Shown here piece by piece: positions 600 to 61,964 of a stretch of 64,000 nt of DNA (the first letter of the stretch is position 1; every line of letters begins with the position of its first letter). Source of the stretch: Chiloscyllium plagiosum (lineage: Eukaryota). The DNA is taken from positions 45,564,658-45,628,657 of the forward strand of contig NC_057719.1 in assembly GCF_004010195.1 (NCBI RefSeq), written 5' to 3'. The notes under the pieces are model-generated. The model did not search any database and was not told where the DNA came from. It saw only the letters and a list, made by a program, of their open reading frames with translations. Position numbers and translations under genes: made by a program.

Positions 600-1975
600 A
601 AAATGCTTCGAGAGGTTAGTCATGGCTCACATCAACTTCAGCCGAGCAAATTGCCATTGTCCTTTGCAATTCATCTACCGGCACAATAGGCCCTGGCCCT
701 ACACTCATCCCTGAAACATGTGGATATCAAGTATAGAAGAGAAAATGAGGTCTGCAGATGCTGGAGATCAGAGATGGAAATGTGTTGCTGGAGAAGCGCA
801 GCAGGTCAGGCAGCATCTAGGGAACAGGAGAATCGACGTTTCGGGCATTAGCCCTTCTTCAGGAAACCAACGATATCAAGTATACCCAAGTCAAGTGTTT
901 ACTTATTGACTACAATTCGACCTCCAACATCATAATTCCAAACAAATGCATCTTTAAATTCTGAGACCTAAGTCTCACCTCCTCTCCTCTATAACTGGAT
1001 CCTCTACATCCTGATCCATAGACAGCAATCAGTAAGAATTAGCGACAACCCCTCCTCCACCACGTTCCTCAACACCGGTGCCCTGCAAGGCTGTGTACTC
1101 AGCCCCCTACTATACTCCTTATACACTTATGTCTGTATGGTCAAATTCTGCTCCAAATCCATTTACAAGTTTGCTAATGACACCACTGTTGTTGGTTAAA
1201 CATCAAACAATGAGACAGAATACAGGAAAGAGACTGAGTGCTTAGCAGCATTTTGTAAAGATTACAATCTACATCAGAAAAATGAAGGACCTGGTCATTG
1301 ATGTCAGGAAGCCATGTGAAAGGCAGGCCCCTGTCTGCATCAATGGTGCTGAGGTGGAAATAGTCAAGAGTGTCAAGTTCCTGGGAGTAATGGTCATCAA
1401 CAATCTGTCTGGGTCCACCCACGTTATCGCAATGGTCAAGAGAGTACAACAATGTCTCCACTTCCTCAGTAGGCTAAGGAAATTTGGCATGTCCCCAGAT
1501 TTTAGACATGCACCATAGAAAGCATTCTATTTGGATGCACTGCATGATATGGCAACTGCTCTTCCCAAGACCGCAAGAAACTACAAACATCCAAGTCCAT
1601 CACGCAAACCAGCTTCCCTTCCATTGACTCCACCTATACTTCCTAATGCCTGGAAAAGCAACCAACATAATCAAAGACCTCTTCCACTGTGGTTATACTC
1701 TCTTCCACCTTCTTCCGCTGGGCAGAATATACAAAGGTTTGAATACATGCATGAATAGACACAAGAACAGCTTCGTCCCCGCTGTTGTCAGAATTTTTAT
1801 TTGCCCTCTGACCTCTCTTTCTCTGCACCTTCTCTGTGGCTGTAACACTGTATTCTACACTCTGTTCTGCTACCCTGATACAAATTGTATGATACAATTT
1901 GACTGTATAGCACACAAAACAACACTTTTCACGGTCTCTCAGTACATGTGACAATAATAAATCAATCAATCAATC
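600..1975 (+). mobile_element. Rex1/Babar-type LINE, 3' part of RT
   Basis: Translates to TGALQGCVLSPLLYSLYT, KFAND, INGAEVEIVKSVKFLGV and QQCLHFLSRLRKFGMS; ends in a ...catgtgacaataataaa(tcaa)n tail. Confidence 0.85.
736..871 (-). mobile_element. Penelope-derived terminal repeat (family 1) with hammerhead motif
   Basis: Minus strand reads CTGAAGA-A-GGGC taat GCCC-GAAACGTC. 13-bp TSD gatatcaagtata at 723-735 and 872-884. Confidence 0.85.
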
Positions 1976-1984
1976 GGTAGCGTT

Positions 1985-2141
1985 GGTGGAAAGAAAGCAA
2001 GATTAATGTTCTGGGCTTCAGAACTGGACCCAAATCGTTAACTCTGATTTCTGTCCACAGATGCTGCCAGGCCTGCTGGGTTTTTCCAGAAATTTCTGTT
2101 TTTGTTTCTGATTTTCAGCATCGACAGTTCTTTCGATTTTT
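1985..2141 (+). mobile_element. Penelope-derived terminal repeat (family 3); partner arm at 547-595
   Basis: ctggacccaaatcgttaactctg...cagatgctgccaggcctgctg matches 11418-11513. Degenerate TSD aataatgcttaaga / aatagtatttaaga at 533-546 and 2142-2155. Confidence 0.7.
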
Positions 2142-3424
2142 AATAGTATTTAAGACTTGTGTTCCAGAAATACCCACATCCTTAGCCAGGTTTCTCAAGT
2201 ATAATTACAACACTGGCATTTACTTGGAAATATGGAAAATTGCCCAATTATGTCCTGTGTGCAAGGAAAGGACAAATCCAACCAGTCAATTATGCAAACC
2301 AGTCTAGTCTCAATTATAGTAATGGTAACAGTCATTTCACTTGTTCAGCAATAATCTGCTCACTGAAAAACCATTTGAGCCTACCAACGCCTTACTTCAA
2401 CACAGCATTGATCAAAATGTGATCAAAGATTTAGAACTAAGAGGTGAGCTTAGTGTGACTACCTTTACTGTCAATTCAGCATTTGACTGAATGTGCTATC
2501 AAGGATCCCCAGAAGGACTGAAGTTAATGGAAATCAGGCAAGGCAACCTTCCAGTGATTGGAGTCAAACTGAACACAAAAAGAAGATAGGTGTGTTTGTA
2601 GGACACCAATCATCTAGCCTCAGAGCATTGTTGCTGAACGTTTTCATTGTAGCGTCCCGGGCAAACTATCTTCAGCTTCGCTCATAAGATCAGAGATGGG
2701 GATGATCACTGATGATTACACAATGGTTAGTGTAATTTATGAGATGCTGGAACAATCCATGCTTTTATGCAACAAAACCTCCAAATTTGGGCTGATAAGT
2801 GGCATGTAGCCACTCCACACAACTTCCAAGTAATGGCTACCTCCAACAAGACCATTGAATTTCAATAGTATTAATTCATTGAACATTCATTTTCAACATT
2901 CTAGGGGTTTCCACTGGCCAGAAAGTGAACTGAACCAACCATTTATATATAATTGTTAAAACTGCAGGTCAGAAGTTAGGACCACAGCTAGCTGTGGTAA
3001 GTAATGCATCTCCTGATAATCTACAAAGCATAAATAAATTGCTTTCCACTTGTCTATGTTGATGAGTACAACTCTGAACAACACTCAGGAAACTCAACAA
3101 AATCCAAAACAAAATCACCTGCTTGACTGGTATTTTATCCACCACTTGCAACATTCACTCCTTCCATTACCAATACATAATGCCATCGATAAGATACATA
3201 GTTAAAACGAATCAAGGCTATTTAACAACATTTTCCAAGCCATCAATCTTTATCACTTAAAAGGAAAAGACAAGCAGCTGCACAGGAATGCTGTGAGCTC
3301 CTAATTTTAGCACATTCTGTCCTGACTTGGAAATATTTCGCCAGCATTATGGGTGTCTCTACCCCTCACGGAGAGTAATCAGGGATTCTGGTGGAGCCAG
3401 AGACATCAAAATGCTGTGAAAGGA

Positions 3425-7455: not shown

Positions 7456-7794
7456 AAGTACCAGAATATACTACTAGGGACCTTTTCCACTGATCCCACT
7501 GGAAGAGTCAAGGTCGGGGGGGAGTTGCTTCTTTTATGATATGGTATATCTAGACATCTTGGGTATCCAGCAAAACTAGGGTGCAAATTGGGTGGTGAAT
7601 GCAGATAGGGTTGGAAAATGTGGCACTGGCTTAACATGCATGTTTACATCAGTAACTCCTGCCAAACCAGCAAATTTTAAAAAGGTCACCGGGCTCCTCA
7701 TATGGGAGAAAATCTGTCAGAATTCTTCAAGGATCCAAGCCATACTTGTATATTATTTGAGTTCTAATTCATAAAACAATTCATACATCAAGGA

Positions 7795-8097
7795 TGGAAT
7801 GGCGAAGTCAGTGTTTGGCACTGCAGGCTACCAGTACCAGGGACCCAGGTTCAATTATTGCTTTGGGCAACAGTCTGTGTGGAGTTTGCACATTTTCTGC
7901 CTGGGTTTCCTCCCACAGTCCAAAGATGTGCAAGTGACTTGGCCATGCTAAATTGCCAGTAGTGTCCAGGGATGTGCAGGCTAGGTGGATCAGCCATGGG
8001 AAATGCAGAAATGTTGGGTCTGGGTGGAATGTTCTTCAGAGGGTCAGAGCGGACTAGATGGGCCGAATGGCCTGATTCAATGCTGTCAGGAATCTAT
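7795..8097 (+). mobile_element. HE1-type tRNA-derived SINE
   Basis: tRNA-like head (gggacccaggttcaatt), core gtctgtgtggagtttgcaca, CR1-like tail gggccgaatggcctg. Confidence 0.85.
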
Positions 8098-11352: not shown

Positions 11353-11513
11353 AAAAACCAAAAAAAACTGCGGATGCTTTGAAACAGAAACAAAAGCAGA
11401 AGTTACTGGAGTTAAGTTCCTCAGTTCTGAGAAAGGGTCACTGGACCCGAAACGTTAACTTTAATTTCTCTTCACAGATGTCGTCAGCCCTGCTGAGCTT
11501 TTCCAACAACTTC
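11353..11513 (+). mobile_element. Penelope-derived family 3 insertion with hammerhead-like motif and partial inverted arms
   Basis: agtt-CTGAGAA-A-GGGTC..GACCC-GAAACGTT-aact at 11423-11460. 13-bp TSD aatattgaatctt at 11340-11352 and 11514-11526. Confidence 0.8.
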
Positions 11514-12169
11514 AATATTGAATCTTGGTTAAATCACACTTAGTGTTTTGGTCACCCTATTATAAAAAGATTACACACTGGAGAGGCTGCAGACAAGATT
11601 TACAATGATAATATCAGAATTCAGGAAAGGGGCAGCCAGTCAGCCAGCCCCAGATGAGAAGTTTCCAGACCTGTGACTGGTGGCTGTACATCTCTTAATT
11701 GTGTTAACCCTATTCCCTGGGCTAGCCCCTTTCGACCCACAGGACTGACTGTGACTCACTCCCTGGACCACAAGGACATGGCTCCCTCCCATTCACTCCC
11801 TAAACTGAGAACACTCCAATTGGATGCTGATTGGATGACTGAAATTAAAGGCTGCCTTTAGACTGCCTGGGCTGGGTCACCCTGACAGATAGTGCCTCTA
11901 TGGACTTTGGTGAAGACTACTCCTCTAAGACTTTGGGAGATACTGCATGTGCAGTCAGGAGATGTTGTTGGAGAGATTGCTGTTTTTACACCATGTTGCT
12001 AAACACTCTATCTTATTCCTCTATTCTGTCTCATCGTTATTTGAGATCCAACCTACAGAGATTATGTTGCCAGCAAACTTGTAAATGGACTTTGCAGAAT
12101 TTGGCCACGTAGTCATGTGTTTATAAAGAGTATAGTAAGGAGCTGAGTATGCAGCCTTGCAGGGCATCA

Positions 12170-15669: not shown

Positions 15670-17108
15670 AAGAACATAAGAACTAGGAGCAGGAGTAGTC
15701 CATCTGGCTCTTTCAGTCTGTTCTGCTATTCAATAAGATGAGGCCTGATATTTTTGTGGCCTCAGCTCCACTTACTCACCCTCTCACCATGATCCTTAAT
15801 TTCTTTACTATTCAAAAAATTATCTATCTTAGTTATAAAAACATTCAATGAGGGATTCTCAACTACTTCACTGGGCAGGGAATTCCATAGATTCACAACC
15901 CTTTGGGTGAAGAGGTTCCTCTTCAATTCAGTCCTAAATCTGCTCCCTTTAATTTTGAGTCTATGCCCTCTTGTTCTAGTTTCACCCGCTGATGAAAATA
16001 ACCTCCCTGTTCGTAGCTTTTCTATTCCTTTCATAATTTTATGTGTTTGTATAAGATCCCCCCTCATTCTTCGATATTCCAATGAGTATTCCCAGTCTAC
16101 TCAGTCTCTCCTTATAAGGCAACCCCCTCAACTCCAAAATCAACCTAATGAATCTCTTCTGCACTGTCTCCAGTGCCACTACATCCTTTCTCAAGTAAGG
16201 AGACCAAAACGGCGCACATTATTCCAATGTGGAACTAACCAGTACCCTATACAGCTGCAGCATAACCTCTCTTCTTTTAAAGCTGAAAATGTGTTGCTGG
16301 AAAAGCGCAGCAGGTCAGGCAGCATCCAGGGAACAGGAGAATTGACGTTTCGGACACAAGCCCTTCTTCAGGATTCCTGAAGAAGGGCTTGTGCCCGAAA
16401 TGTCGATTCTCCTGTTCCCTGGATGCTGCCTGACCTGCTGCGTTTTTCCAGCAACACATTTTCAGCTCTGATCGCCAGCATCTGCAGTCCTCACTTTCTC
16501 CTCTCTTCTTTTAAACTCAATCCCTTTAGCAATGAAAGACAAAATTCCATTTGCCTTCTTAATTACCTACTGCACCTTCAAACCAATCTTCTCTGATTCA
16601 TGTACACGGACACCCAGGACCCTCTGCCCAACGGCATGTTTCAATTTTTTACCGTTCAAATAATACTGTTATTCCTACCAAAATGGATGACTTCACATTT
16701 ATTAACATTGTACTCCATCTGCCATACTTTTGTCAATTCACTTAAAGTATCTATGTTCCCCTACAAAGTTTCACATGCCTCTGCACACTTCGGTCTACCA
16801 CTCATCTTAGTGTCATCTGCAAACTTTGACACACTACACATGGTGCCCATCTCCAAATCATCTATGTAAATTGTGAGCAATTGTAGTCCCAACACTGATC
16901 CCTGAGGCATACCATTAGTCACCGATCACCAACTAGAAAAGCGCTCATTTATCCCCACTCTTTGCTTGCTATTAATTAACCAACTCTCTATCCACACTAA
17001 TCCTTGCCCGCAATACTGTGAACCTTTCTCTTATGCAGCACCCTTTTGTGTAGCACCTTGTCAAATAACTTTTGGAAATCCAGAAACACTACATTTCCTG
17101 GGTCCCCA
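15670..17108 (-). mobile_element. CR1 LINE ORF2 3' part
   Basis: Translates to VVFLDFQKLFDKVLHKR, RMRGDLIQTHKIMKG and FTQRVVNLWNSLP; tail begins agaacataagaactaggagcaggagtag. Confidence 0.92.
16282..16500. mobile_element. Penelope family 1 inverted-repeat (hairpin) insertion, hammerhead motif on both strands
   Basis: Two inverted arms meet at ...tcaggattcctga... 15-bp TSD ctctcttcttttaaa at 16267-16281 and 16501-16515. Confidence 0.9.
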
Positions 17109-23299: not shown

Positions 23300-23512
23300 T
23301 GAAAAATGTGTTGCTGGAAAAGCGCAGCAGGTCAGGCAGCATCCAAGGAGCAGGAGAATTGACGTTTCGGGCATAAGCCCTTCTTCAGGAAGAAGGACTT
23401 ATGCCCAAAACGTCGATTCTCCTGTTCCTTGGATGCTGCCTGACCTGCTGCGCTTTTCCAGCAACACATTTTTCAGCTCTGATCTCCAGCACCTGCAGTC
23501 CTCACCTTCTCC
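23300..23512. mobile_element. Penelope family 1 hairpin insertion
   Basis: Inverted arms; intact minus-strand motif CTGAAGAAGGGCttatGCCCGAAACGTC. 17-bp TSD tagctgagaatgggaac at 23283-23299 and 23513-23529. Confidence 0.9.
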
Positions 23513-23684
23513 TAGCTGAGAATGGGAACCCCATTCAACTCATGCATGCAATAATGTCTATAATGGTTCATGGCTTTGAAAGCATGAACTCCTGCAATGA
23601 GAGAGCAACAACCTTATGGAGAGGCCTATGCATCAGCACACTGAGTTGTTGCAGGAAGCATACACTAATGTTTAGGAGCAGATC

Positions 23685-25249: not shown

Positions 25250-26200
25250 TCTGGAGGGTCATGTTAAGGAGAGCATGGGCAAACCACCTCAATGTCCAAA
25301 GTCTTCACATGAGGGTACTGCAAGGTGACACTGTTCCAGGCACCACCAGTGGTCCTTGTACAGATGGCCTTGGTCTAGTGCCTGTGTGGTTCTGTATCAG
25401 GGTGCCACAAATGGATGGGTTACCATTTATTTAAAAGTTAACCTTTGACTCCCAGATATTGGATGGAGTGAAGATCTGTGGCACTCTGGACCACTGGAAG
25501 CTGAAGAATTTAATATCCACTGGACATACATTAGCAGATAGATCTTCTGATCACAGAGAAACTGAAGATTGAGAGAATATAAATCCTTCCTGTTGAAGAA
25601 CTTCACTCGTGGGCCATTGGGTATCCCAGTGGCTACATGGGTACTAAAAATGACTTCCAGTATCTGGGTGAAAGTGAGGACTGCAGATGCTGGAGATTAG
25701 AGTCGAGAGTGTGGTGCGGGAAAAGCACAGCAGGTCAGGCAGCATCTGAGGAGCAGGAGAATCAATGTCTCGGGCAAAAGCCCTTCGTCCAGAATAAGGC
25801 TGTGAGCCGAGGGGGTGGTGAGATAAATGAGAGGGGGGTGCGACTGGGGGGGAGGTAGCAGAGAATGTGATAGGTAGATGGAGGTAGGGGTAATGGTGAT
25901 AGGTCGGAGAGGAGAGTGGAGCAGATAGGTGGGAAGGAAGATGGACAGGTTGGACAGATTGCACCTGGAGCAATCCATCAAAGATGGGGCCCATGTGTGA
26001 ATCATATACGCTGCCCTGCTCTCACATAAAGGGCATCAGTAAACTGTAATGGTGGGCAGTACACTGAGATACCACTGAGTCCCTCAAATGATCCTTGGAG
26101 GCATCTGTAAATAATGAAATTCATGGCTATTGGCTGGACTTGGCGATTGATGCATTCGTTATGAGATCTTCCAAGACAAGGTAACAAATCTCTGGTGGCA
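25250..26200 (-). pseudogene. Decayed PIF/Harbinger (HARBI1-like) DDE transposase
   Basis: Minus-strand pieces read EICYLVLEDL, QGSFEGLSGIS...TDALYVRAGQRI and STHVATGIPNGPRVKFFNRKDLYSLNLQFLCDQK. These resemble GSFQ, TDAL and IDCTHV..NRKGFHSLNVQLVCD. Split by a Penelope repeat at 25668-25975. Confidence 0.75.
25668..25975 (-). mobile_element. Penelope family 1 terminal repeat plus 3' region
   Basis: gaaagtgaggactgcagatgctggagattagag...gcccttcgtccag followed by a G-rich tract like that at 42780-42840. Confidence 0.8.
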
Positions 26201-27589: not shown

Positions 27590-28850
27590 GTAAATATAGG
27601 TTAAACTCTAAAATATACTTCTTATAATGTGTCACCTGAAACTATAGACAATACTGCAGCTGAGGTCTAACATGGGTCTTGTATAGCTTTCACATAACCT
27701 CCTTCCTTTTGCACTAATAAAGACCATATCTGCTTTATTAACTGCTCTCTTCACTTAGGCGAAAGTGAGGACTGCAGATGCTGGAGATTAGAGTCGAGAG
27801 TGTGGTGCGGGAAAAGCACAGCAGGTCAGGCAGCATCCGAGGAGCAGGAGAATCGATGTTTCAGGCAAAAGCCCTTCATCAGGAATGAGGCCTCTTCAAT
27901 TGTCCTGCCATGATCAGGGATCTGCGCATACATCCAGGTCTTCTGCTCCTGCACTCCCTTAAGTATTTCATCCCATACTTTATGTGGTCTGTCCATATTC
28001 TTCCTTCCAAAATATATTATCTCTCATTTCCTTGCATTGAACTTTATCTGCCACCTATTTACCTACACCACCATATATCTATGCTCTTTTTAGTGTACTT
28101 CTACACTACACTCCTCACATTTTATAATGCTTCCAAATTCATAGCATCCGCAAACTTTGAAATTGCTCCCTCCACATCAAGATCTAGGTTATTAATATGT
28201 ATCAGGAAGAGCAAGGTTCCCAATAACAACTCTAGTACAAACTTTCCTCAAGTCCAAAAAATATCTATTGACTATCACTTTCTGTTTCCTATTGCTCAGC
28301 CAATTTTGTGTCGGTATTGCTACTTTCTGCCTTATTCAATGACCAAGCATTTTTTTTCCCACAAGCCTGTTGTGTGGCACTGTATTGAACACTTATGCCA
28401 CCATACTCATCAACCTTTTCTATTACCTCTGCAAATACTTTGGCAAGTTAGTTTAACAAGATTTCCCCTTTCAAAATCCATGCTGTATCTTCCAAATCAA
28501 CCCACCCTTTTCCATGTAAGTCTATTTCTATTTTGTTCTGAATAAATGTTTTTATAAACTACCCCACCACTGAACTTAAACTGCTGAGCGTATTCTTACA
28601 ATATCTTTTGACTAAATCTAATCTTTGAATAAGTTTAATTTCTGCAATTCTCCTGTTTTCTGGCATCTCTCCCAAGTCAAGGGCAGATTGAAACAATATT
28701 TTCACTGGACTTTCTACTCTCACTTTTTTCAATATTCTTCAATGCATCTCATCCACTCCCAGTGCCTTGTGAACTTTCAATGTCAATAGCTTTGCAACAT
28801 TTTCTCCTTAACAATTTCAAATCTTTCTAGTGACAGAGCTTCTTCCTCTA
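27590..28850 (-). mobile_element. Old CR1 ORF2 fragment
   Basis: Antisense KFAD region (gcatccgcaaactttgaaatt) and YCLxF region; interrupted at 27757-27891. Confidence 0.75.
27757..27891 (-). mobile_element. Penelope family 1 terminal repeat with CUGAUGA hammerhead core
   Basis: Minus strand reads CTGATGAAGGGCttttGCCTGAAACATC; flanked by ctcttcactt / ctcttcaatt. Confidence 0.85.
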
Positions 28851-29072
28851 CAAAGCCATGCTGTCACAGCAGACAGCCACATAGCTGACACTCACTTGCA
28901 CAAACAACCCCATTTTCTCACCTGAGTCAGCGTTTAACCATCCGGCCACACAGTGTTCCTGTCCATAGTTAATTTCTGTTTGAATACCTTCTCTAGGTCA
29001 CCTCTACTCTGTCCTTAATGTCCACTGTAGACCAAACATCTGATCATTGTTCAGTAAGGATCATCCCATATA

Positions 29073-29261
29073 GGAGAAAGTGAGGTCTGCAGATGCTGGA
29101 GATCAGAGCTGGAAATGTGGTTGCTGGAAAAGCGCAGCAGGTCAGGCAGCATCCAGGGAACAGGAGAATCGACGTTTCGGGCTTATGCCCGAAACGTCGA
29201 TTCTCCTGTTCCCTGGATGCTGCCTGACCTGCTGCGCTTTTCCAGCAACACATTTCCAGCC
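29073..29261. mobile_element. Penelope family 1 hairpin insertion, centred on hammerhead stem II
   Basis: Symmetric around tcgacgtttcgggc-ttat-gcccgaaacgtcga. TSD atcatcccata(t/c)agg at 29060-29074 and 29262-29276. Confidence 0.9.
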
Positions 29262-30305: not shown

Positions 30306-30325
30306 TACCAGGAGCGGAGCAGGTA

Positions 30326-35432: not shown

Positions 35433-35847
35433 GAATCTATGTCTGGAAAGATGGTGCAAAAGAGAAGGTTTTAGATTTTTGGGAGATTGGGATTGGCTCT
35501 GGGGAAGATGACACCTATACTTGTGGACCATTTAGCTGTTGCTATTGGGAGGATTTCAAACTAACTTAGATGTGATGTGGAAATCAAGAGAGAATATTGG
35601 AGAGGGATACCAGGGTATACAAAATACTTGGAGAGGCAGATAGCCCTAATATAGAGAATAGAAAGTAAATGGGTGTAATAAAGTAATGAAGTTAAAATTT
35701 TAAAAAGGATACAGTTAAAATTGCTTGGTGTAGAATATAGACAATCAACCGGAGGAACAAATCCTCAAGGCAATTACAGAAAGATGTCATTGTATTGTTG
35801 TAATTGTGTACTTTAACTATCCAAATGTAGGCTGGAACAGTATTTCT

Positions 35848-36062
35848 AGGAGAAAGTGAGGACTACAGATGCTGGAGACCAGAGTTGAAAAATGTGGTGC
35901 TGGAAAAACACAGCAGGCCAGGCAGCATCTGAGGAGCAGGAGAATCGACTTCGGGCATAAGCCCTTCTTCAGGAAGAAGGGCTAATGCCCGAAACGTCGA
36001 TTCTCCTGCTCCTCGGATGCTGCCTGGCCTGCTGTGTTTTTCCAGCACCACATTTTTCAACT
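35848..36062. mobile_element. Penelope family 1 hairpin insertion
   Basis: Inverted arms. 16-bp TSD ctggaacagtatttct at 35832-35847 and 36063-36078. Confidence 0.9.
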
Positions 36063-42631: not shown

Positions 42632-43085
42632 GAGGTAAAAACAATGACTGCAGATGCTGGAAACCAGATTCTGGATCAGTGGTGCTGGAGGAGCACAGCA
42701 GTTCAGGCAGCATCCAAGGAGCTTCGAAATCGACGTTTCGGGCAAAAGCCCTTCATCAGGAATAAAGGCAGTGAGCCTGGAATGTGGAGAGATAAGCTAG
42801 AGGAGGGTAGGGGTGGGGAGGAAGTAGCATAGAGTACAATGGGTGAGTTGCCACATTGATGCCCTGGGGTTGAAGTGTTCCGAGGCGGAAGATGAGGCGT
42901 TCTTCCTCCAGGTGGTGAGTGAGCGGCGGTGAAGGAAGCCCAGGACCTCCATGTCCTCGGCAGAGTGGGAGGGGGAGTTGAAATGTTGGGCCACGGAGCA
43001 GTGTGGTTGATTGGTGCGGGTGTCCCGGAGATGTTCCCTAAAGCGCTCTGCTAGGAGGCGAGCTGAGTCCTTGTGGTTCTTGAAA
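42632..43085 (-). mobile_element. Penelope 3' end: GIY-YIG C-terminal fragment plus terminal repeat with hammerhead
   Basis: Minus ORF AQHFNSPSHSAEDMEVLG...HFNPR is followed on the same strand by CTGATGAAGGGCttttGCCCGAAACGTC. Confidence 0.88.
42729..42763 (-). ncRNA. Minimal type I hammerhead ribozyme motif (family 1)
   Basis: CUGAUGA-A-GGGC(uuuu)GCCC-GAAA-CG-UC; palindromic ACGU replaces a full stem III. Activity is not shown. Confidence 0.7.
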
Positions 43086-43865: not shown

Positions 43866-44091
43866 AGCTGAAAATGTGTTGCTGGAAAAGCGCAGCAGGT
43901 CAGGCAGCATCCAAGGAACAGGAGAATCGACGTTTCGGGCATAAGCTCTTCTTCAGGAATCTGAAGAATTTCGGGCTTATGCCCGAAACGTCGATTCTCC
44001 TGTTCCTTGGATGCTGCCTGACCTGCTGCGCTTTTCCAGCAACACACTTTCAGCTCTGATCTCCAGCACCTGCAGCCCTCACTTTCTCTCA
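43866..44091. mobile_element. Penelope family 1 hairpin insertion in the gag region
   Basis: Inverted arms. 14-bp TSD tgcaaatgaagcag at 43852-43865 and 44092-44105. Confidence 0.9.
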
Positions 44092-44229
44092 TGCAAATGA
44101 AGCAGCTTGAGTTAGAGGTAAGAGATAAGGAAAGGGAGCAGAAATAAAACAGTTTGAGTTACAGTTAGAAGCAGGAGAGGGAAAAAGGGAGAGCTTTTGA
44201 ACACCAGAAACTGACACTTAAATAAGAAA

Positions 44230-44617
44230 AAGTGAGGTCTGCAGATGCTGGAGATCAGAGCTGGAAATGTGTTGCTGGAAAAGCGCAGCAGGTCAGGCAG
44301 CATCCAGGGAACAGGAGAATCGATAATAGGAGCAGGAGTAGGCCAAAAGATCAGCAAGGTAGCCTATGTGTGGAATCGCAGGAGATGGAGGCGATTCTAA
44401 ATAAGTTTTTTGCATCGTGTTTACTGTGGGGAATGAAGATATAGATTGTGGGGAATAAGATGGTGCCCCTCCCCCAAGTCCCTCCTCCCTACCTTTTATC
44501 TTAGCCTGCTGGACAAACTTTCCTCATTTCTGAAGAAGGGCTTATGCCCGAAACGTCGATTCTCCTGTTCCCTGGATGCTGCCTGACCTGCTGCGCTTTT
44601 CCAGCAACACATTTCCA
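44230..44617. mobile_element. Penelope family 1 inverted-arm insertion enclosing a CR1 fragment
   Basis: Arms 44230-44322 and ~44465-44617; middle translates KDQQGSLCVESQEMEAILNKFFAS (CR1 ORF2-like). 14-bp TSD acttaaataagaaa at 44216-44229 and 44618-44631. Confidence 0.85.
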
Positions 44618-45691
44618 ACTTAAATAAGAAAGTCAGCTTAAAAGCCTCGAGATAAACGCTGAAGGTAATAATAATGAGGAAGTAGTGCAAACTCATGTGG
44701 AAGAGCAAAGATTTAAAATGACAATGCGTAGCAGCTGAAGTGGCTGATGATTATGAGCTGGTGCATAAAACACGGTTTGGCTTCCAGAGTGAATGTCAGC
44801 CCATGAAGGATAGAAATTGGGGCAAAGAGAAATCCTCACGTGGAAAGGGAAAGGTAAATCTCAGTGAAGATCATTAGGATAACTTACCATAGAGTAAAAA
44901 GGAAACCCTTGAAGGGGACAAAGAAGGTAAAATAATCCGGTGGTTTCATTGTAACAAAGTGGGCCACGTGAAATCACAGTGTTTGTGGGCTAGGAGAAAG
45001 CCAGATATAGGAAACCTGGACAAGCCTAGAAGTTTTGTTGGCATGGTAACAGAAAGCACAGTGGAGACTAGAAAGCTGCATCAGAGTGCACAAGCTGATC
45101 ACAGGTTGATTAAGGAGGAGGTGCTAGATCTTCTTAAAAAATATACCTCGAAAGGTAAGATTTAGTCACAAAAGTCAGGAGTCGCAGGTAAAGACATTAC
45201 AATATTATGGGACACAGGATCGTCTCAGTCTGTAATGCTAAAGGATGAGGAGATATGTACTCCTAGGGACTATTGCCAGAAAATGTGCTGGTAACATGAA
45301 TTCATGGGAGACAAAACGCACTCAGTTATATAAAGTGAGGCTAGAGAGTCCAGAGAAGAGTGGAGAATTTGTGGTAAGAGTACTAGACAAACAGTCAGCT
45401 TCAAGAATACAATTTGTCCTTGCAAATGATATAGCTGATTCACCAGTAGGTGTGCTGCCTACTCTAGTTGAAAAGCCAGCAGAGACACAGGCAACTGAAG
45501 AAATTAAGGATGTTTATCCAGGAATTTTCCCAGATTGTGTGGTTACAGATCACAGAGGCACAGCTGAAGCAGGAGAGGTCAAAAGACACAGATAAGGAAA
45601 CTGACATAGCTTTATCTGAGACTTTTTTGATCAGATAAGTGGGACAAAGTAGGAGCATCTAGGTAAATATACAAGTATCTTTAGCTCTGCT

Positions 45692-50502: not shown

Positions 50503-52205
50503 TAAAGATAAAATCATTAAAATTTCTTCATAAACTTTGAATTTATCATTCAAGCCATGGAAATAATAAACATTTAATTGATTTCACTGTTGGAGACTGA
50601 TACTCAAATTGTAATAACCATTTGTATTCTTAATTACTTTTTTTTTCCAATTAATTTTATTTTAGTCTCTATCTGAAAAATTATCTTAACTTCCTGGTAA
50701 CTTTTCCATTAAGTAAATATGTCAGAAATTTCTTAACTCACTATTTGAAATTTTAACTGGGCTCTGCAGCACATTTTTTGGGTGAAAGTGAAATGTTTTA
50801 TGCCCTTCCCTTAAGAGATTGTATTTGCTAAGGGCTTCCAATAATTGACGTCTTTCCTGAGGTACTTGACTTAGACTTCATCCTGAAGCTGCATGGGGCT
50901 TTTTCTGTTTTCACTATGTTTTTTAGCGGTTGTTTCTCTCTTGCAGTCTGTGAAACTCTTTTGTCATTGAGAATTGCAGTTTTTCTGGTTGTTTCTCCGA
51001 AGGAGTTTCTATTTATAGATGTTTCCTCCGTAGCCACAGAGGCTTTTCAGGTCTGTGGCTTTTTTTAACTTCTGCTGGTTTTAAAGCTGAAGTTAAAATT
51101 ACTTCTTAAAAATTCTTCTATTCTCTATGTACACACAAGTCTTTTTTTAATGTGTTCTGCACCACAACTTTCTTTGCAGTCAATCCTGCCATTGCACCAT
51201 CTTCCATCTTGTGTTTTTGTGCCACATCTGGGAGATTTGAGCAAATGGACTGCCGTGGTACAAAGTGGCAGATTACTGCAACCTTCTCAAGCGCAATTAG
51301 GGATGGGCAATAAATGCCTGCCCAGTCAGGGAAGCCCAAGTCCCACAAATGAATTGTAAAAATCTCTGTGTCATCCATGGCTTGTGCAGGTTGATCATGT
51401 CTGGTCTCTCACCACATATGGATCCAGCCTTTGTTATCATCTAACGATATTACTATCTGAGTTGGTGGCTCTGTGTGAGGTTAAATTATGGTGTTTCTTC
51501 TTTATTGTTGTCATCTTGTTGGTCCAACACTGCCTGGGTGCCTGAATGGAGAAATGCAGAAGAGGACATTTTGATGAGGACAGCCAGGGAGTATGCAGGA
51601 GTCATTTACTTATGCCAGTTTTGAATCAGAAGAGATTGCAGAATGAGGGGCGTGTAGGGTGTGGGAAGGAGGAATAGGTCTTCCATTATATCACCCTAAT
51701 CATTAACAATGGTCTTAGCTATGGCCATTTCAATGAAAGTACCAAGTTAAAAATGACACAACACCAGGTACTTGGGTTCATGTCACACTACAGGTGACCA
51801 GCAATGCACTATACACACAGATACTCCTACACACACGCACTCCTATATACACATACAAACACAGACACACATCTACACAGACATGCACATAGACACACAC
51901 ACACACCCTTACAGACACACACACTCCCACACTCATACATGCACCCCCTCACAGACTTATAAGACACTCTACACTCACATACACACATACATACACTCTC
52001 TCTCACACTCACAATCCACCAACCCAGACAGACAGACAGATACACACACACACGCACACAAAGACCCACGTGCACACATACACATATACGTTTGTGGGGT
52101 GAATTTGTACTTGCAGAGTTACATTGTACTTTGCTCAAAAACTGCATGAATTCATGTAAGACTGTTATCTCAATGTTTGGATTAGAATCAGTCTAAACAT
52201 TATGG

Positions 52206-52434
52206 TCATGATTCGGAGATGCCGGTGTTGGACTGGGGTGTAGAAAGTTAAAAATCACACAACACCAGGTTATAGTCCAACAGGTTTAATTGGAAGCACA
52301 CTAGCTTTCGGAGCGTCGCTTCTTCATCAGGTGATTCATCACAACCACCTGATGAAGGAGCGTCGCTCTGAAAGCTGGTGTGCTTCCAATTAAACCTGTT
52401 GGACTATAACCTGGTGTTGTGTGATTTTTAACTT
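52206..52434. mobile_element. Penelope family 2 hairpin insertion
   Basis: Inverted arms, each with CTGATGA..GAAAGC. 12-bp TSD taaacattatgg at 52194-52205 and 52435-52446. Confidence 0.88.
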
Positions 52435-52695
52435 TAAACATTATGGCACAGACAGGAAACACCTTCAACGTATTGTCTAGCTAACACCAATTATCACAGT
52501 TAACCTGAGAATGCAACTTTTAAAATAAAATAAAGTTTTGTGATTTACACACGAAAGAAGTGAAACTATCATGGTATTCGAACAGGTGAAAGACTCAACA
52601 AACAATCAAGGTATTTTTCAATGTATAATTTCAGTTACATCACACTGTAAACTTTTGCTATAAACTCTGTGTCTTACAATTGTGCCCTCCACAAC

Positions 52696-52730
52696 CACCT
52701 GATGAAGGAGCGGCGCTCCGAAAGCTAGTG
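52696..52730 (+). ncRNA. Minimal type I hammerhead ribozyme motif (family 2)
   Basis: cac-CUGAUGA-A-GGAGC(ggc)GCUCC-GAAA-GC-UA-gug: 3-bp stem I, 5-bp stem II, palindromic AGCU, predicted CUA cleavage triplet. Confidence 0.75.
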
Positions 52731-52829
52731 TGCTTCCAGTTAAACCTGTTGGACTATAACCTGGTGTTGTGTGATTTTTAACTTTGTACACCCCAGTCCA
52801 ACACCGGCACCTCCGAATCAATGAGAGTA

Positions 52830-53830
52830 TGTATTGTTTTCTCCATAGGATGAGGCCATGCAGCCTTGTCTGTCCCATACCAGTTCGAGGCTGTTGGCTT
52901 TGGTTATGTGCTACCTTGCTCTGCAAGAGAAAGGCAAGTGGGTCAGTGCAATCTGTTTGGCTGACATTACTACCTTGGTTGAGAGAAGTATGTTAAAAAT
53001 CACATAACACCATGTTATAGTCCAACAAGTTATTTGGGAGTACAAGCTTTTGGAGCACTGCTCCTTTATTAGGAATCTGGTGAAGCAGGATCATAGGACA
53101 CAGAGTTTATAGCAAAAGATCATAGTGTCATATAACTGATGTAATGCATTGAACTAACCTAGGTTGCTGTTAAGCCTTTCACCTTTTAGAATGGGTTGTA
53201 GGTTTCAATTCATTAATATGTTAATTCCAGAACTTCTTTCAAGTCACATTGCTAAGATAAATTCAGGTTTTATAATAAAAAGGTGACATCTCAGCTCAGA
53301 TAACCTGAAGTTATCTCAGGAAAGTGATTTAAAGAGGTTTTGGGATTGACATATTAATGAATCGAAACCTGCAACCCATTCTAAAAGATGAAAGACTTTC
53401 ACACTTTATTTCACACGTCATGGAAATAATATGTGAAAGCTGCAAAGTGTAGGTTTGATAAACACATTGATCTTATGTGTGTGGGGGTGAGATAGGAAGG
53501 TGTGATTCATGGTTTACAGAGATAGTTGATAGATAAGCAGCAAGGTATGGTGCATTGAATGATGTGTGAAACCAGTAGTGTGGTTAGATGGGATGTACCA
53601 GTTAAAGATACATTCACTGACTTGACCACTTGTGTTAAGTCATTCAACTTTTTGCAGCACTGCATCAGATTCCATGCAATATTAACTGCCGTGGACTATC
53701 TGGTTCCATTGCCTGTACAAAGTTTGGCTGAAAGGCTTTGCATGGCCTTTTGTGAATTGATCTCATTTCCTCTTCTCTCCACATTCTGCACTAAAGCTCC
53801 AGTGCAGTATCACAACATCTTCAAACCTCA
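52830..53830 (-). pseudogene. Decayed two-exon Myb/SANT-like gene (PIF/Harbinger ORF2 type)
   Basis: Exon 1 (~53830-53622) reads DTALE/ALVQNVERR..TLYRQWNQI..AVN..QCCKKLNDLTQVVK, then a gtcagt donor. Exon 2 follows the acceptor tttctcttgcag (52921) and reads SKVAHNQSQQPRTGMG. Confidence 0.7.
52990..53398. mobile_element. Older Penelope family 2 remnant with inverted segments
   Basis: 52990-53130 is the reverse of 52640-52785; 53175-53300 and 53305-53398 are mutually inverted. Confidence 0.7.
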
Positions 53831-54582: not shown

Positions 54583-54900
54583 AGAGTCCCTACAATGTGG
54601 AGGCAGGCCATTCAGCCCATCAAGTCCACACCACCCCTCTAAAGAGCATCTCATCCAGACCCACAACCCCTACTCTCTCCCAGTAACCATATATTTCCCA
54701 TGGCTAATACACTAGCCTGTCTATCCCTGGACATCATGGGCAATTTATCACACCCAATCCTCATAACTCACACATCTTTGGACAGTGGGAGGAAACTGGA
54801 GCACCTGGAGAAAATCCACACAGACACAGAGAGAGCGTGCAAACTCCATACAGACAATCACCTAAGGCTGGAATCGAACCCGAGCCCTATGAGGCAGCAA
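54583..54900 (-). mobile_element. HE1-type SINE
   Basis: Reverse complement of the HE1 core (gtgcaaactccatacagaca; ggaatcgaaccc). Confidence 0.85.
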
Positions 54901-55175
54901 AGCACTCAAGATAATCACCAAGAGCATTTCTACCATGAATAATCTACATTGGATGCTGGGGAATTGTACATTTTTGGCCCAACTTTATAAAATTTTCGTC
55001 ATTATTTGTGTGCTTACATGAATGGAACTAACACAGAAGAGCTTGATTTAGAATAATAATTTTTTAAGTAGTGCGTGTTTTCAAGTGTAATATTCTCCAT
55101 GCAGTGTTTTGATGGTGGTTACAGTAAGGTGGAAAATCTACTTCCTTGTAAATTCAGGATTAGGAATCATGTGAT

Positions 55176-55458
55176 TGGCTAGCACTGTTGCCTCACAGCG
55201 CCAGAGACCCGGGTTCAATTCCCGCCTCAGGCGACTGACTGTGTGGAGTTTGCACGTTCTCCCCATGTCTGCGTGGGTTTCCTCCCACAGTCCACAAAGA
55301 TGTGCAGGTCAGGTGAATTGGCCATGCTAAATTGCCTGTAGTGTTAGGTATAGGGGTAAATGTGGGGGTATGGGTGGGTTGCGCTTCGGCGGGTCAGTGA
55401 GGACTTGCCGAAGGGCCTGTTTCCATACTGTAATGTAATCTAATCTAATCTAATCTAA
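55176..55458 (+). mobile_element. HE1-type SINE with (TAATC)n tail
   Basis: tagcactgttgcctcacagcgccagagacccgggttcaattcc; many CpGs retained. Confidence 0.9.
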
Positions 55459-56139: not shown

Positions 56140-56950
56140 ACAAAAACACTGCGGAAGCAGGAAACCTGAAAAAGAAAGGAAAACAGAAAATGTTGAAAAT
56201 ATTCAGCAGGTCTGACAGCATGTGTGAAAAGGGAAACAAAATTAATGTGTTGAGGTGAATACAAGAGTAAAGGAGAGGAACACACAAAGGTTTTGGATTG
56301 TGTATGTGGTAGGAGAGATTAAATGGTAAAGTTGTCAGAGCACAGAAGGGCAAAAGGAGTGGTAATAGTGGTAATAAACAGGCAAAGTATTTGTCCAGAG
56401 TGAGTGTGAATGGCAGAACAATGTAGAGTTTTGTCTGAAAGCAAAGTATTAAAACCAAGATTTATATAGGCACATGGCAAAAAAAAAATGGAAAACAGAG
56501 TTTTGGTTTGACATTGTGGAACTCAATATCGAGACCATAAGTTGTAAAGTGTCACATTGGTAGATGAGGTGCTCTACTTCAAGCTTGCAGGAAGTTACAG
56601 CACACTAAATTGAAAGATTCCAATGTGAGTTTCTGCTTTTCCTAACAGGAGTGTTTGTGGTTTGGATGGTGTGGGGAAAACACATAGACGGCATATGCTA
56701 CATCTCCCTTGATTGAATGGGAAGATGTTGTGGGAAGAGGACAAAATCTTGAGAGTATAGATAAGTGGATAGGTGGTTAGGGAGGTAACAGTTCCTTCAG
56801 AATGCTAACAAGGGAGAGCAGGTAAAATATATTTGTTGGTGGCACATCGTTGGAGGCAGCAAAAGTAGTAAAGGATGATCCTTCGAACCTTCAAAGGCTG
56901 ATAGGTTGGCAAGTGAAGACAAGGAGCATCTTCTCACAGTTCTGGGAATT
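56140..56950 (-). mobile_element. Old Penelope-like remnant
   Basis: Terminal-repeat-like start (atattcagcaggtctgacagcatgtgtg) plus weak antisense GIY-YIG-like text. Confidence 0.5.
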
Positions 56951-57689: not shown

Positions 57690-59095
57690 AATTGCGCAAG
57701 ACAGTTAGCTGGCAATCTGCGTACTGGCCATGGGTAAATCAGGATATTCAACAACTCATGAATTGCGTGTGAACCATGGAAAACGTAACAATTCCAGCAG
57801 TGGAGGGAGTCTTTACATTCGCATAATGTGCCATTCATCCCTTGAACAACAATAGTACAGTGAACAGGGAAGATTACATCCTTGTAATGGATTACTTCTC
57901 TAGATTTCCCACTGACAATGTGACTGTCATTGATATTTCAGCTTATTTGATGTTCCAGATCAGATAGTGTCTGACAATACACCAGAGTTCACTGATAAAC
58001 CATTTCAAGACATGCACTAAGTGGAAAGTGATCCATATCACATTATCACCCTACTATCTATACTCGAATAGTCTGGCAGAATATGTGTCATGTACTATCA
58101 AATTAATTATCATTTGGTATTGAGCAACAAAAACAAGAACTCATATTGGCAACAAAAACAAAAGTTACTGGAAGAGAAGAACAGATCTGGCAGCATCTGT
58201 GAAGAGAAATCAGAGTTAACTTCTGAGGGTCTATAAGGTTCTTGTCAGACTACATTTGGAGTATTGTGCACAGATTTGAGCCCCATATCTCAGGAAGGAT
58301 GTTTAGAGAAGGTTCACAAAAATGGTCCCAGGAATGAAAAGCTTATCATATGAGAAACATTTATGATTTCGAAGGATGAGGGGGGATTTTATTGAAACAT
58401 ACGGAATACTGAATGGCCTGGACAGTGTAGATTTTGGGAAGATGATTCTATTGGTGAGAGACCAGGACCCAAGGGCATAGCCAGAGAGTAAAGGGAAGAC
58501 CTTTCAGAATGAAGATGAGGCTCATTCCTGATGAAGGGCTCTTGCCCGAATCGTCGATTTTTCTGTTCCTCGGATGCTGCCTGACCTACTGTGCCTTTCC
58601 AGCACTACTCTAATCTTGACTCTGATCTCCAGCATCTGCAGTCCTCACTTTCCCCCATGTCCTAGCCCCGTACCCCACACCGGGCCTTTTTATCACTTAG
58701 TCCACCATTACACAGTACCTATTGTTAGCCACTAACAGTCTCCATTAACAGCTATTCACCTTCCTAACCAGATTGTTATTCGCTTCTTTGCCTGTCAAAC
58801 TGTTCTTCTTTCTCTTTGGGTTCTATCTCCACCTCTTGTTTACTCCTTAACCCCTCCCCTCATCCTATCTGTGGCATATAAACCAACATTTTTCGAGCTA
58901 TCATCAGTTCTGAGGACATGAAATGTTAACTCTGATTTCTCTTCACAGATGCTGCCAGACCTGCTGAACTTTTCCAGCAATCTTCTGTTTTTATTTCTGA
59001 TTTACTGCACTGCAGGTTTTTTTGGTTCTTATTTCAGAATTCACATTGCATTGCTGCAACCCCAATGGAGAAGGGATTGCCATGTGCAGGTAAAA
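57690..59095 (+). mobile_element. Gypsy-type integrase core remnant, split by the 58149-59035 insert
   Basis: Reads LFDVPDQIVSDNTPEFT and KWKVIHITLSPYYLYSNSLAE (cf. SDNGPQF; HITSSPYYPxSNGLAE); resumes as ATPMEKGLP near 59055. Confidence 0.75.
58149..59035. mobile_element. Composite Penelope insertion: family 3 arms, CR1 piece and family 1 repeat
   Basis: Family 3 arm 58150-58222; CR1 piece 58225-58518; family 1 repeat 58520-58654; family 3 3' region to ~59030. Degenerate TSD agaactcatattg / agaattcacattg. Confidence 0.75.
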
Positions 59096-59234
59096 GGGAC
59101 ATATTGTTTTATATCTTACAGTCAGTACGTCAACATACCTGAGAGAGACGTGATAGTGATTAGAGACGAAAAAACCTGGCAACATATATGTTTCTGGGTA
59201 ATCCAACATGGAGGGTGGGAAAAATTTCTGGCTG

Positions 59235-60702
59235 TAACAGGCTGCTCCTTTTTTGAGGTATTTTGGGTGTTGGAGTGATTTCCTCGAATTCCAGGAGCAG
59301 CGATTACTGTTTTATATGATGTTGCATTGTTTTAGAACTTTGGAGAAAAAAAAGTCCAAACAACAGCACTTTTAAAAGGGTGAGGAACAGGCAAAGGCAG
59401 CACATGGTGAGGTGAGTGCAGGAGAGAGAGAGAGACAGACAGAGAGACAGAGAGAGAGAGACAAAAAAACCCACACTGCTAACTGATGGAGCAGTGAACC
59501 TGTGCAGTTACTGTCTTTGTTGTTAAATCCATGTATCGCTAGACATCGGAGTGCATCTGGGAAAATTAATAAATAGTGAAATTCACAACAGATTTTGGAG
59601 GAACCTGTTTGGGAGAGGTGACAGCACAGATAAGTAAATAGTTTTAAGTGTGGCCTTGGGGCCTTGCTGTAAGTCTGCAGTAGTGAATAGAGTGGGTTAT
59701 TTCTTGATTATATGTTTTATTGAGATATGTCTCTTGATTAAACTTAAAAATATGAGCCATAAGTATTAAATTAGCCTGGAGCAGTGTATTGTAGAGGAAT
59801 AAGACGGTGCTATTTTCTGGGTCTGCAGATTGGAAGAAGCAAAAATGTCCCTTTTTTGTCAGATGTGGGAGTTTAGGAAGAGTTTACATGTTACTGAGGG
59901 TTATAACTGCAATAAATGCCATTGGTTGCGAATCCTATCAGATCGAATGAAACAATTGGAGCGACAGTTAGAGGCAATGAGGCGTGTGATGGATGGTAAT
60001 TATTGGAAGGGAGAAAAGTCACAGATACAGTCACATAAATGGGTTAACTCTGAAAAGTAAGAGAGATAGGCAGGTAGTACAGAGGTGTTCTGTGGTTATC
60101 CCCATTTCAAACAAGTATGCTGTTTTGAAAAATGGAGGGGGTGTTGAATTCTCAGGGGAATGTAGCACAAACAGCCAAGTTTCTGGTATTGAGACTGGCT
60201 CTAAAGCAGTGAGGGCTACATTAGGTTCCAAGAGATTGATTGTGTTAATGGACTCTCTAGTCAGAGGCACAGACAGACATTTCTGTGGCCAGCAGCAAAA
60301 AATCAGAATGGTGTGTTGCTTCCCTAGTGGAGGATCAAGGATGTCTCAGAGAGGGTGCAGAATGTTCTCACGGGGGAGAGGGACCAGCAGGAGGTCATTA
60401 TACACAATGGAACCAATGACATATGAAGGGAAAAGATTGAGATTCTGAAGGGAGAATACAGAGAGTTGGGCAGGAATTTAAAAAGGAGGTCCTCGAGAGT
60501 AGTAATATCAGGATTACTCCCGGTGCTATAAGCTACTGACGGGAGGAATAGGAAAATAGAGCAGGTGAATGTATGGCTGAGAAGCTGATGTATTTGCTAG
60601 AACTGCTCGGGTTGGGATAGGATACTGATTGGGTTAGGATATCTAGTCAGCATGGACTGAAGGGTCTTTTTCTGTGCTGTACATCTCTCTGATTCTATGA
60701 CT
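59235..60702 (+). mobile_element. Internally deleted CR1: 5' UTR, ORF1 and 3' terminus
   Basis: ORF1 zinc-finger/zipper CQMWE..YNCNKCHWLRILSDRMKQLERQL and esterase IVLMDSLVRGTDRHFC are joined at ~60610 to a CR1 3' tail (gaagggtctttttctgtgctgtacatctc). Confidence 0.82.
59420..59462. repeat. (GA)n microsatellite, imperfect
   Basis: Directly visible. Confidence 0.9.
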
Positions 60703-61858
60703 GTGTACTTGTTGTCTGTTTTGTCTGTGAGGCAAACTCACACCAGCAGTACAAAGAAAACAAAATCTGTAATAGTACAAAGGACACAAGACATTAAATA
60801 AAAAAAAGCTTCATGATGCAAGTGAACATCAAAGGGAGTGGTAATGAGGTAAAGAAATAAAAAAATTGTCCATAAAATGTAAGAATGGCACGATGTGGAA
60901 TAGATGCTATCTGAAAGAAACATGAAAGGTAATGAGAGAAATAGATTGGCAAAGTGAATTGACACCAAATGCAAACAGAGTTTACATTCTAAAATAGTTG
61001 AGATACATAGTTGCAATGTCATGACTGCCAAAGATGAGGTGCTGTTACTTGAGCTTTCATTGAACTCCATTGAAACATCTTAGGGATTTAAGGACGGAAA
61101 GAATAGAGTGGGATCAAACTGGGAACTTAAATGAAATGCAACTGAAAGATTGGGTTTTTCTTTAAATTTCAGATTTCCATTAATAGTATTTTAATTTTGT
61201 ATTGTTATTTATCAATATATTTAAACTTAAATTCTGTGAATTATTATTGCCAATTTTATCCTCTTTTACTACAAGCCCAGTTTTTATCTAATCTATTTGA
61301 AGCACAAAGGAAATGTCCTCTGAATCTATATTCAGTATTGTGAACTCAGACAGCACCATCACGTCGACATGTTAACATGACTGGTTCAAATATCTACATT
61401 AACTGTACCAGTGATGAATAATTCAGCTGACAGATATTTCAAACAGATATGATAGTGAATGAGACACAGGAAGACAAACTATGAAGTAAGTAAAGTGTTC
61501 ATTTACTGGTGTAATACTTACTCAATGTTGTCATTAGCTCAGTCTCTTACAAATAACACAAATATATGAGTTTGTAAATTAATCTGATTTTTATATGAAC
61601 AAAGAATGCAATTACATATGAAATGAAAGTATCCAGAAGTGATTGTTCCAAGATAGAAAACTGTGCCAAAATCCTATTCTGTTGTCTTTGGGGCCTAGTT
61701 CAAATGCACCTTCTGTCATTAATTGCACAATAAATTTACTGACATTTATCCAAAGACTTTCAGAACCACATAATGGAAAGCAACTGCTTTTCAGCCAGTG
61801 AAATATTTTAGAAGTGGAATCCCAGTTGCAATGTCGAAATGTAACTGTCAATTTTCAC

Positions 61859-61964
61859 AACGAAAACAGAAATTGCTGGAGAAACTCAGCAGGTCTGGCA
61901 GCATGTGAGGAAAGAAAGCAGGGTTAATATTTCAGGTTGAGGTGACCCTTCTTCAGAACTGTGA
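61859..61964 (-). mobile_element. Penelope family 3 terminal repeat
   Basis: Minus strand reads agttCTGAAGAAGGGTcacc..CCTGAAATATTaac. 10-bp TSD caattttcac at 61849-61858 and 61965-61974. Confidence 0.8.

Follow-up and report, generated by a model that had tools for sequence, protein, structure and literature searches.

Short repeats with minimal hammerhead motifs, very probably truncated ends of Penelope-like elements, and their head-to-head insertions in a 64-kb window of Chiloscyllium plagiosum

We analyzed a stretch of 64,000 nucleotides from contig NC_057719.1 of Chiloscyllium plagiosum (hereafter, the window), in which short repeats of three families carry a motif resembling the minimal hammerhead ribozyme (min-HHR). 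These repeats are very probably the 5'-truncated ends of pseudo-long terminal repeats (pLTRs) from at least three lineages of endonuclease-bearing, Neptune-type Penelope-like elements (PLEs), whose source elements kept a minimal type I hammerhead. On the side of our own analysis, this is based on the motif, its covariation between lineages, the link of family 1 to an open reading frame (ORF), target-site duplications (TSDs), two fixed 3' ends and neutral decay; weak dimer-dependent cleavage, assistance by protein, nicking of both strands and two start sites of reverse transcription are taken from the available portions of the literature cited below. All counts of repeats, insertions and arms refer to this one window.

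The strict descriptor demanded CUGANGA, 0–1 extra nucleotides, a stem II of at least 4 bp, GAAA-NN-UH with its palindrome and a stem I of at least 2 bp. It found 5 sites in the window, compared with a mean of 0.017 and a maximum of 1 in 60 dinucleotide shuffles; a looser form found 9 (0.05 in shuffles), a one-mismatch form 18 (2.65 in 20 shuffles) and the exact pattern 6 (0 in 100 shuffles). The core in type I order, CUGANGA ... GAAA ... UH, is intact in the 5 strict matches and broken in most other copies. By BLAST with window seeds together with alignment, family 1 was found to comprise 17 arms, family 2 four motif-bearing arms plus one 31-nt end piece, and family 3 about nine remnants, two of them with a readable motif. 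When the window was searched with a covariance model (R1) trained on 15 metagenome loci and none from the window, the top 20 of 28 matches were repeat copies, 17 matches lay at E<=0.03, and the best score among the copies fell at 835–862(−). No hammerhead family appeared among the 17 matches of an Rfam search at E<=10, so that recognition by a curated covariance model was not obtained; that search gave only miRNA-type hairpin matches below the gathering score, because of the head-to-head palindromes described below. The family 1 pattern had no match in viral contigs.

A preceding sequence-only reading of this DNA had reported more than a dozen short repeats with a hammerhead motif, which the enrichment of the strict descriptor (5 versus 0.017) and the R1 top 20 bear out. 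The five copies that it named as best (42729–42763(−), 44530–44557(+), 23359–23389(−), 52696–52730(+) and 11423–11460(+)) all exist at those places and on those strands. As a choice of best copies the list needs revision: 23359–23389 forms one arm of a hairpin and has C.A in place of the first pair of stem I, stem I.1 of the 44530 copy is U.G and this copy is accompanied by an inverted arm, 11423–11460 is a core variant as had been said, reading CUGAGAA with G8 lost, and the top-scoring 835–862(−) was missing.

All three families have an extra A between A9 and 10.1 and a G10.1–C11.1 pair. Stem II reads GGGC/GCCC, GGAGC/GCUCC and GGGUC/GACCC in families 1, 2 and 3, respectively, exactly as the sequence-only reading had given it, and the self-complementary 4-mer before the UH site is ACGU in families 1 and 3 and AGCU in family 2. 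Stem I has 4 bp in family 3, 3 bp in family 2 and, in family 1, 2 bp followed by U.U and one further pair. Pairing was counted by anchoring, with the 42759 copy, not the 44530 copy, representing family 1; MAFFT, applied to the window motifs together with those of the metagenome, displaced family 2 by one column, and that alignment was left unused. Across the three independent window families, 23 of 24 cells in stems I and II and the palindromic 4-mer are paired, versus 16.7 when the 3' letters are shuffled (P=0.001); across 13 motif types, the figures are 103 of 104 versus 60.8. Double-sided changes number 42 versus 13.2 on alignment A3, and slid controls are far lower. The covariation is one between lineages, and the earlier statement that the families co-vary holds at that level; for single copies there is no clear selection (see below).

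For comparison, 70 metagenome loci were chosen by protein alone, and the 50 with a mapped endonuclease or ORF end were used. A search for the core only, with no demand for pairing and within 500 nt 3' of the endonuclease, found it in 16 of the 50 loci, compared with 0.03 in shuffled sequence. Full pairing of stem II (4/4) and stem I (3/3) was present in 15 of these 16, and the palindrome in 14. The motif lies on the strand of the ORF in 15 of the 50 loci, mostly 110–150 nt past the ORF end. Fifteen loci of this set served to train R1. Three PLE-linked motifs (L011:790, L023:577 and L032:2821(+)) read CCGA instead of CUGA, and this change of U4 to C may be a natural core variant. Two metagenome elements of invertebrate type (L012:885–1141 and L043:1143–1391(−)) carry an inverted pLTR with its hammerhead; their inverted arms extend about 180 nt upstream of the motif, indicating that a stop at the ribozyme edge is not universal.

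The protein evidence ties family 1 to Penelope. In tblastn, the frames 43117–42861(−) and 63685–63936(+) have 69–80% identity to a Chiloscyllium punctatum protein (P0001), and the other close matches come from whale shark, zebra shark and rays. Since the best matches are in sharks and rays, a shark origin of the elements is likely, in agreement with the sequence-only reading. P0001 itself has reverse transcriptase (RT) and GIY-YIG matches below the Pfam cut-offs; Pfam gave no match in the two window endonuclease frames and found GIY-YIG only in full relatives, near the cut-off, and no PLE RT was found within the window. A CX4CxxC linker is present in the 63607–63936 piece and in P0001; a CX2-5CxxC linker before GIY-YIG characterizes Neptune, and also Nematis and Naiad, according to the available part of Craig et al. 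(2021, PMC8557442). Motif 42759 begins 96 nt past the ORF end on the same strand. The earlier claim of a motif 3' of a GIY-YIG fragment at 42632–43085 therefore stands in position and strand, with the amendment that the fragment (43117–42861(−)) is frameshifted near 42905–42920. Family 3 has a weak endonuclease-like fragment upstream (E=9e-4, 53% to P0031), and its linkage to Penelope ORFs is accordingly weak. A putative C-terminal peptide motif of family 2 (8 codons, 51773–51796) had no match in 41 proteins or 70 loci, and the ESM Atlas matches for 42800–43153, all under 0.9, were not used.

Min-HHRs are known from the pLTRs of metazoan PLEs, including Xena, Poseidon and Neptune of fish, and do not cleave as monomers and cleave at a low level as dimers, as stated in the available part of Cervera and de la Pena (2014, PMC4209133). 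The features listed there recur in the window: the type I core, the extra nucleotide after A9, G10.1–C11.1, the palindromic 15.2–16.2, a genome with more than one co-varying family, a majority of truncated copies standing alone and some close pairs on opposite strands; the helix I of 2–4 bp may also belong here. These features, together with the GIY-YIG link of family 1 and the 15 of 50 metagenome loci, support the earlier assignment to the minimal type I hammerheads of Penelope-like terminal repeats. Within the same available text, differences are that helix II has 7–8 bp in the Schistosoma example versus 4–5 bp here, and that helix I typically has 4–5 bp (2 bp in Drosophila virilis), whereas family 1 has only 2 consecutive pairs. 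Shark terms were absent from two of the three supplement files of that paper.

Seven insertions are head-to-head pairs of arms within a single TSD of 12–17 nt; this arrangement, with one tail per pair, was absent from the sequence-only reading. Each family has two fixed 3' ends, 35–40 nt apart, and in all 7 pairs just one of the two arms carries the longer one, the tail (P=0.008 if arms are independent at 50:50); an eighth one-tailed inverted case is suggested at 51739–52820. Among 16 insertions tested, the TSD is clear in 8 and plausible in 2. As read from the alignments, 14 of 21 motif-bearing arms start from 9 nt before to 9 nt after C3, the first base of the core, and thus upstream of the cut site; 2 start further in and 5 reach far upstream. 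Cleavage-generated 5' ends were considered as the rule and rejected, because a start no more than 2 nt from the cut site was seen in only one arm of the 21. The junctions overlap by 3–4 nt, the overlap at 29.2 kb being stem II, and arms within a pair are more alike than arms across pairs (12/720 permutations). The hairpins measure 186–228 nt, with folding energies of −163 to −186 kcal/mol. One insertion holds a filler of about 140 nt between its arms (44324–44465), which has only a 19-nt match elsewhere in the window and which resembles a long interspersed nuclear element (LINE) of CR1-like type; it possibly reflects a template switch to another RNA.

Penelope insertions with an inverted pLTR and a tail of 30–40 bp on one end have been described (Arkhipova et al., 2013, PMC3846280; Craig et al., 2021, PMC8557442). 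So far as the available parts of these papers go, the window insertions resemble them in the head-to-head 5'-truncated arm, the tail on one arm, the TSD and the palindromic or overlapping junction; they differ in that both arms are bare stubs of 90–130 nt without an ORF, that junctions cluster at the 5' edge of the ribozyme, and that the TSD has 12–17 nt versus 8–10 in rotifer elements. For the Poseidon element PAc of the green anole, the available text of Frangieh et al. (2024, PMC11167929) reports that cleavage needs protein, that both strands are nicked and extended, that reverse transcription starts at two adjacent sites defining the tail, and that uncleaved RNA is the main template. The two starts with a tail, the nicking of both strands, the uncleaved template and the lack of RNA-seq ends at the cut site are points of likeness to our case as we read it; by contrast, the window ORF has the Neptune-type cysteine linker of another clade, and the window elements are known from sequence alone. 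In the same text, inverted pairs are not derived from the two start sites. Animal non-LTR retrozymes, which are non-coding, hammerhead-bearing and derived from the pLTRs of PLEs (Li, Clavereau and Pollet, 2026, 10.64898/2026.07.22.740005, as far as available), resemble the window stubs in these three properties but form head-to-tail tandem arrays, and no tandem array occurs in the window.

Four sequencing runs were mapped onto 44420–44700, and the contigs matching this segment numbered 46,634 and 41,209 in two organisms. Among the upstream loose ends listed, the commonest were at 44526, 44530 (which is C3) and 44535 (162, 273 and 189 contigs in run X1), and run X10 had 299 contigs at 44530; the flank agreement of 0.32–0.36 at the loose ends indicates that the flanks differ. 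Opposite-strand joints at 44526/44537–38 were present in X1, X10 and X21. The variants listed fall at N7, loop II and CpGs, and G12 was changed by CpG decay in 10–14% of the mapped sequence. Non-CpG divergence was 5/145 in the core and 62/918 downstream (P=0.14, subfamily differences included), showing no clear selection on single copies. In X21, an RNA run, 2459 family reads were found. We think that the genomic copies are, in good probability, inactive, either by decay or because the antisense arm, transcribed first, captures the sense arm: in any RNA that spans a pair, the antisense arm precedes the sense arm and the two form a hairpin, so that the ribozyme should be blocked. As a separate observation, A>G changes occurred at 21 places in the X21 RNA, compared with 3 and 2 in DNA runs (for example, 7–17% versus 1–2% at 44586). 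Editing of A to I in the hairpins might explain this excess; the comparison is one between different individuals and of reads with contigs, and the strand bias of T>C fits imperfectly.

As to the ribozyme of the source elements, it would consist of the core, the extra A, a stem II of 4–5 bp, a stem I of 2–4 bp and the 4-mer (ACGU or AGCU) in place of stem III, and cleavage would be expected only after pairing of two copies by way of the 4-mer, the protein of the element probably assisting. For the hairpin insertions, we lean, with some reserve, to an origin in which both staggered nicks prime cDNA on uncleaved RNA, synthesis stops near the 5' edge of the motif and the products are joined by microhomology. 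One cDNA would start at the tail end and the other 35–40 nt inside, each from its own nick; both would copy through the intact ribozyme, halt near its 5' edge and anneal by 3–4 nt. Such double priming at two start sites would account at once for the target duplication, for a tail on one arm only, for the opposed arms and for the kept core. The stop might be caused by the 5' end of the RNA, by a fold-induced stall or by short master copies. More tentatively, the stubs may form a genome-wide fossil record of double priming, in which a dimeric Penelope protein primes both nicks, perhaps on a single RNA from which the tailed cDNA displaces its partner, the 5' edge of the ribozyme fixes the cDNA ends, and the hammerhead, apart from cutting, sets the insertion length and forces a self-silencing double-stranded RNA (dsRNA). 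No statement of this idea was found in the literature searched, most subscription papers lying outside the search.

The main rival keeps the same identity of the elements and derives the inverted arm from self-priming by fold-back, with an antisense strand as the template, a scheme put forward for Penelope of rotifers. Palindromic head-to-head junctions were read in this way in the available part of Arkhipova et al. (2013, PMC3846280), the junction at 29.2 kb is the stem II hairpin, where the 43.96 kb pair has an extra switch, and variants common to both arms fit one template. However, no tail can arise when a tail-less cDNA folds back, and the loop sequence at 29.2 kb has the orientation of the arm without a tail; furthermore, the outer ends lie exactly at the two family-wide 3' ends beside the TSD in 7 of 7 pairs, and the pair at 44.3 kb holds 140 nt of foreign filler between its arms. 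We regard self-priming as rather unlikely. Less probable again is that the hairpins are non-autonomous mobile units, similar to miniature inverted-repeat transposable elements (MITEs) or retrozymes and copied whole from master palindromes, even though they are similar in size (186–228 nt), one junction is common to 23.4 and 35.97 kb, and the joint near 44526/44537 recurs in two organisms. Six different junctions exist among the 7 pairs, and the two pairs that share one belong to different subfamilies, with the full-core arm tail-less in one and tailed in the other. The ends differ by the tail and the TSD varies within 12–17 nt, unlike a MITE or a DNA transposon with terminal inverted repeats, and the window has solo and inverted arrangements only, with none of the head-to-tail units of a retrozyme.

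It is very improbable that the host maintains the dispersed copies as functional ribozymes for cutting transcripts. Three unsequestered copies (862, 42759 and 52699) do retain every core base, family reads occur in the RNA run (2459) and non-CpG divergence in the core is half of that downstream; but this gap lacks statistical significance (P=0.14) and contains differences between subfamilies, CpG decay has removed G12 in 10–14% of the mapped sequence, and the closest partners on the same strand carry mutations and are held in hairpins. The notion that one repeat amplified a chance resemblance, to which the dependence of copies within a family and the Rfam search without a hammerhead match might point, can practically be dismissed: core and pairing persist, with differing letters, in the three families and in ten motif types of the metagenome, and the metagenome core search, made with no pairing demand, refutes it.

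Against our identification of the repeats as hammerhead-bearing Penelope ends, and against the readings built on it, the following points have to be weighed. The best R1 value of family 2 is E=0.1 and two of its copies were missed, its low score being due to the AGCU form, which is not in the training set; the family is provisionally assigned to Penelope by its tail, TSD and inverted-arm anatomy instead of by an ORF. The exact core is absent in 34 of the 50 metagenome loci, and in 25 even with one mismatch allowed. Stem I of family 1, with 2 pairs and then U.U, is marginal and the weakest of 14 motif rows. The covariation sets were partly selected by pairing, and the shuffles ignore relatedness. 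Minimum free energy folding of monomers gave the hammerhead fold in none of the copies, and in cofolding the 4-mer was paired in 3 of 6 copies only. Of the 16 insertions, 6 are without a TSD. Soft clipping at mismatches 44529 and 44534 and subfamily divergence upstream account for part of the loose-end peaks. No position at which RNA molecules begin or end in numbers, the cut site included, was found in X21, a weak test with poly(A) single-cell reads of which 2% were sampled.

According to the available parts of the papers cited, earlier work has already described the class of motif and its dispersal in truncated copies, as well as nearby pairs on opposite strands, pLTRs in inverted order and a tail confined to one end, and literature on sharks or bamboo sharks with Penelope contained none on these motifs by title. 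The annotation is an ordinary one, extending the 2014 class to a shark-like genome in which the family is very abundant. Its value is mechanistic: how Penelope makes inverted ends and what its hammerhead does are open in that literature as far as available, and both questions can be tested by counting, given tens of thousands of short insertions that have a TSD, one tail and a junction that can be scored. Hairpins of 90 bp may also be a large source of dsRNA in transcripts.

Table 1. Hammerhead-bearing repeats and Penelope-like ORF pieces in the window
Feature	Position	Strand	Details
Family 1 solo stub with tail	741..865	−	Intact motif C3..C17 862..835; 13-nt TSD 723–735 and 872–884
Family 3 stub	11420..11515	+	Motif 11427–11456, GGGUC/GACCC; core CUGAGAA, G8 lost
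Family 1 head-to-head pair	16272..16502	.	16371 minus arm tail-less, 16377 plus arm tailed; 16-nt TSD
Family 1 head-to-head pair	23300..23514	.	Junction via GAA overlap in core; plus arm tailed; 17-nt TSD
Family 1 solo copy	25667..25870	−	About 75 nt of upstream pLTR; decayed motif
Family 1 solo stub with tail	27757..27890	−	Begins 8 nt before C3; CpG-decayed; possible 10-nt TSD (9/10)
Family 1 head-to-head pair	29071..29259	.	Joined at stem II (GGGC/GCCC overlap), no core; minus arm tailed; 15-nt TSD (14/15)
Family 1 head-to-head pair	35847..36062	.	GAA junction as at 23.4 kb, other subfamily; minus arm tailed; 16-nt TSD
5'-truncated family 1 element	42632..43062	−	Frameshifted GIY-YIG C-terminal fragment, 96 nt, intact motif 42759..42732, tail
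Family 1 head-to-head pair	43866..44090	.	Extra stem II switch in plus arm; plus arm tailed; 14-nt TSD
Family 1 inverted pair with filler of about 140 nt	44226..44620	.	14-nt TSD
Minus arm of the 44226..44620 pair		−	Tailed; begins 2 nt before cut site
Plus arm of the 44226..44620 pair		+	65 nt of upstream pLTR; motif 44530–44557
Probable long family 2 insertion	51739..52820	+	31-nt inverted tail-less end piece, direct arm of about 1 kb, intact motif 52699–52727, tail; 12-nt TSD (11/12), which suggests a single insertion
Family 2 head-to-head pair nested in long copy	52206..52435	.	Minus arm tailed; 12-nt TSD; both motifs mutated
Older family 2 copy	52992..53398	−	Decayed motif; inverted repeat centred near 53285
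Decayed family 3 end (56176–56231)	56176..56906	−	About 580 nt 3' of weak endonuclease-like fragment 56906–56811
Family 1 solo stub with tail	58521..58655	+	Begins 7 nt before C3; A15.1 mutated
Family 3 remnant	58903..58991	+	Stem II region deleted
Family 3 stub	61855..61962	−	Motif 61956..61926 decayed; possible 13-nt TSD (12/13)
Penelope-like ORF piece	63685..63936	+	CX4CxxC linker and GIY-YIG start; 80% to P0001; ends in 41-N gap

In family 3 (for example, 11454–11481(+)), the sequence just downstream of the cut site consists of TTAAC, a run of pyrimidines, CAG and ATG, a layout which presumably resembles a branch point with a 3' splice site; the ATG after CAG opens a motif common to family 1. 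The further idea that a 3' splice site precedes the motif is unsupported, the AG positions differing by subfamily (−8, −17 and −25) and no such joint occurring in the mapping.

Other repeats surround these insertions. At 44893–48279(+) lies a broken Gypsy-like element whose integrase zinc-binding domain, RT and RNase H are present as pieces in different frames (Pfam E values of 8e-14, 4e-22 and 1e-20), the integrase piece preceding the RT piece, and a 178-nt direct repeat at 43387 and 48602 (87%) may represent remnants of long terminal repeats. At least five copies of an interspersed repeat with a tRNA-like head, which we assume to be a shark short interspersed nuclear element, occur at 7788–8750, 49538–50500 and 54731–55410; ARAGORN found no tRNA genes in the window. 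GC-rich minisatellite arrays with open repetitive frames occupy 29486–30330 and 31283–32090 (units of about 39–49 nt and 49 nt), a weak RVT_2 match (E 8e-4) lies at 40666–41282(+), and fragments of LINE RT were found at 15762–16100, 19095–19553 and 21454–21756.

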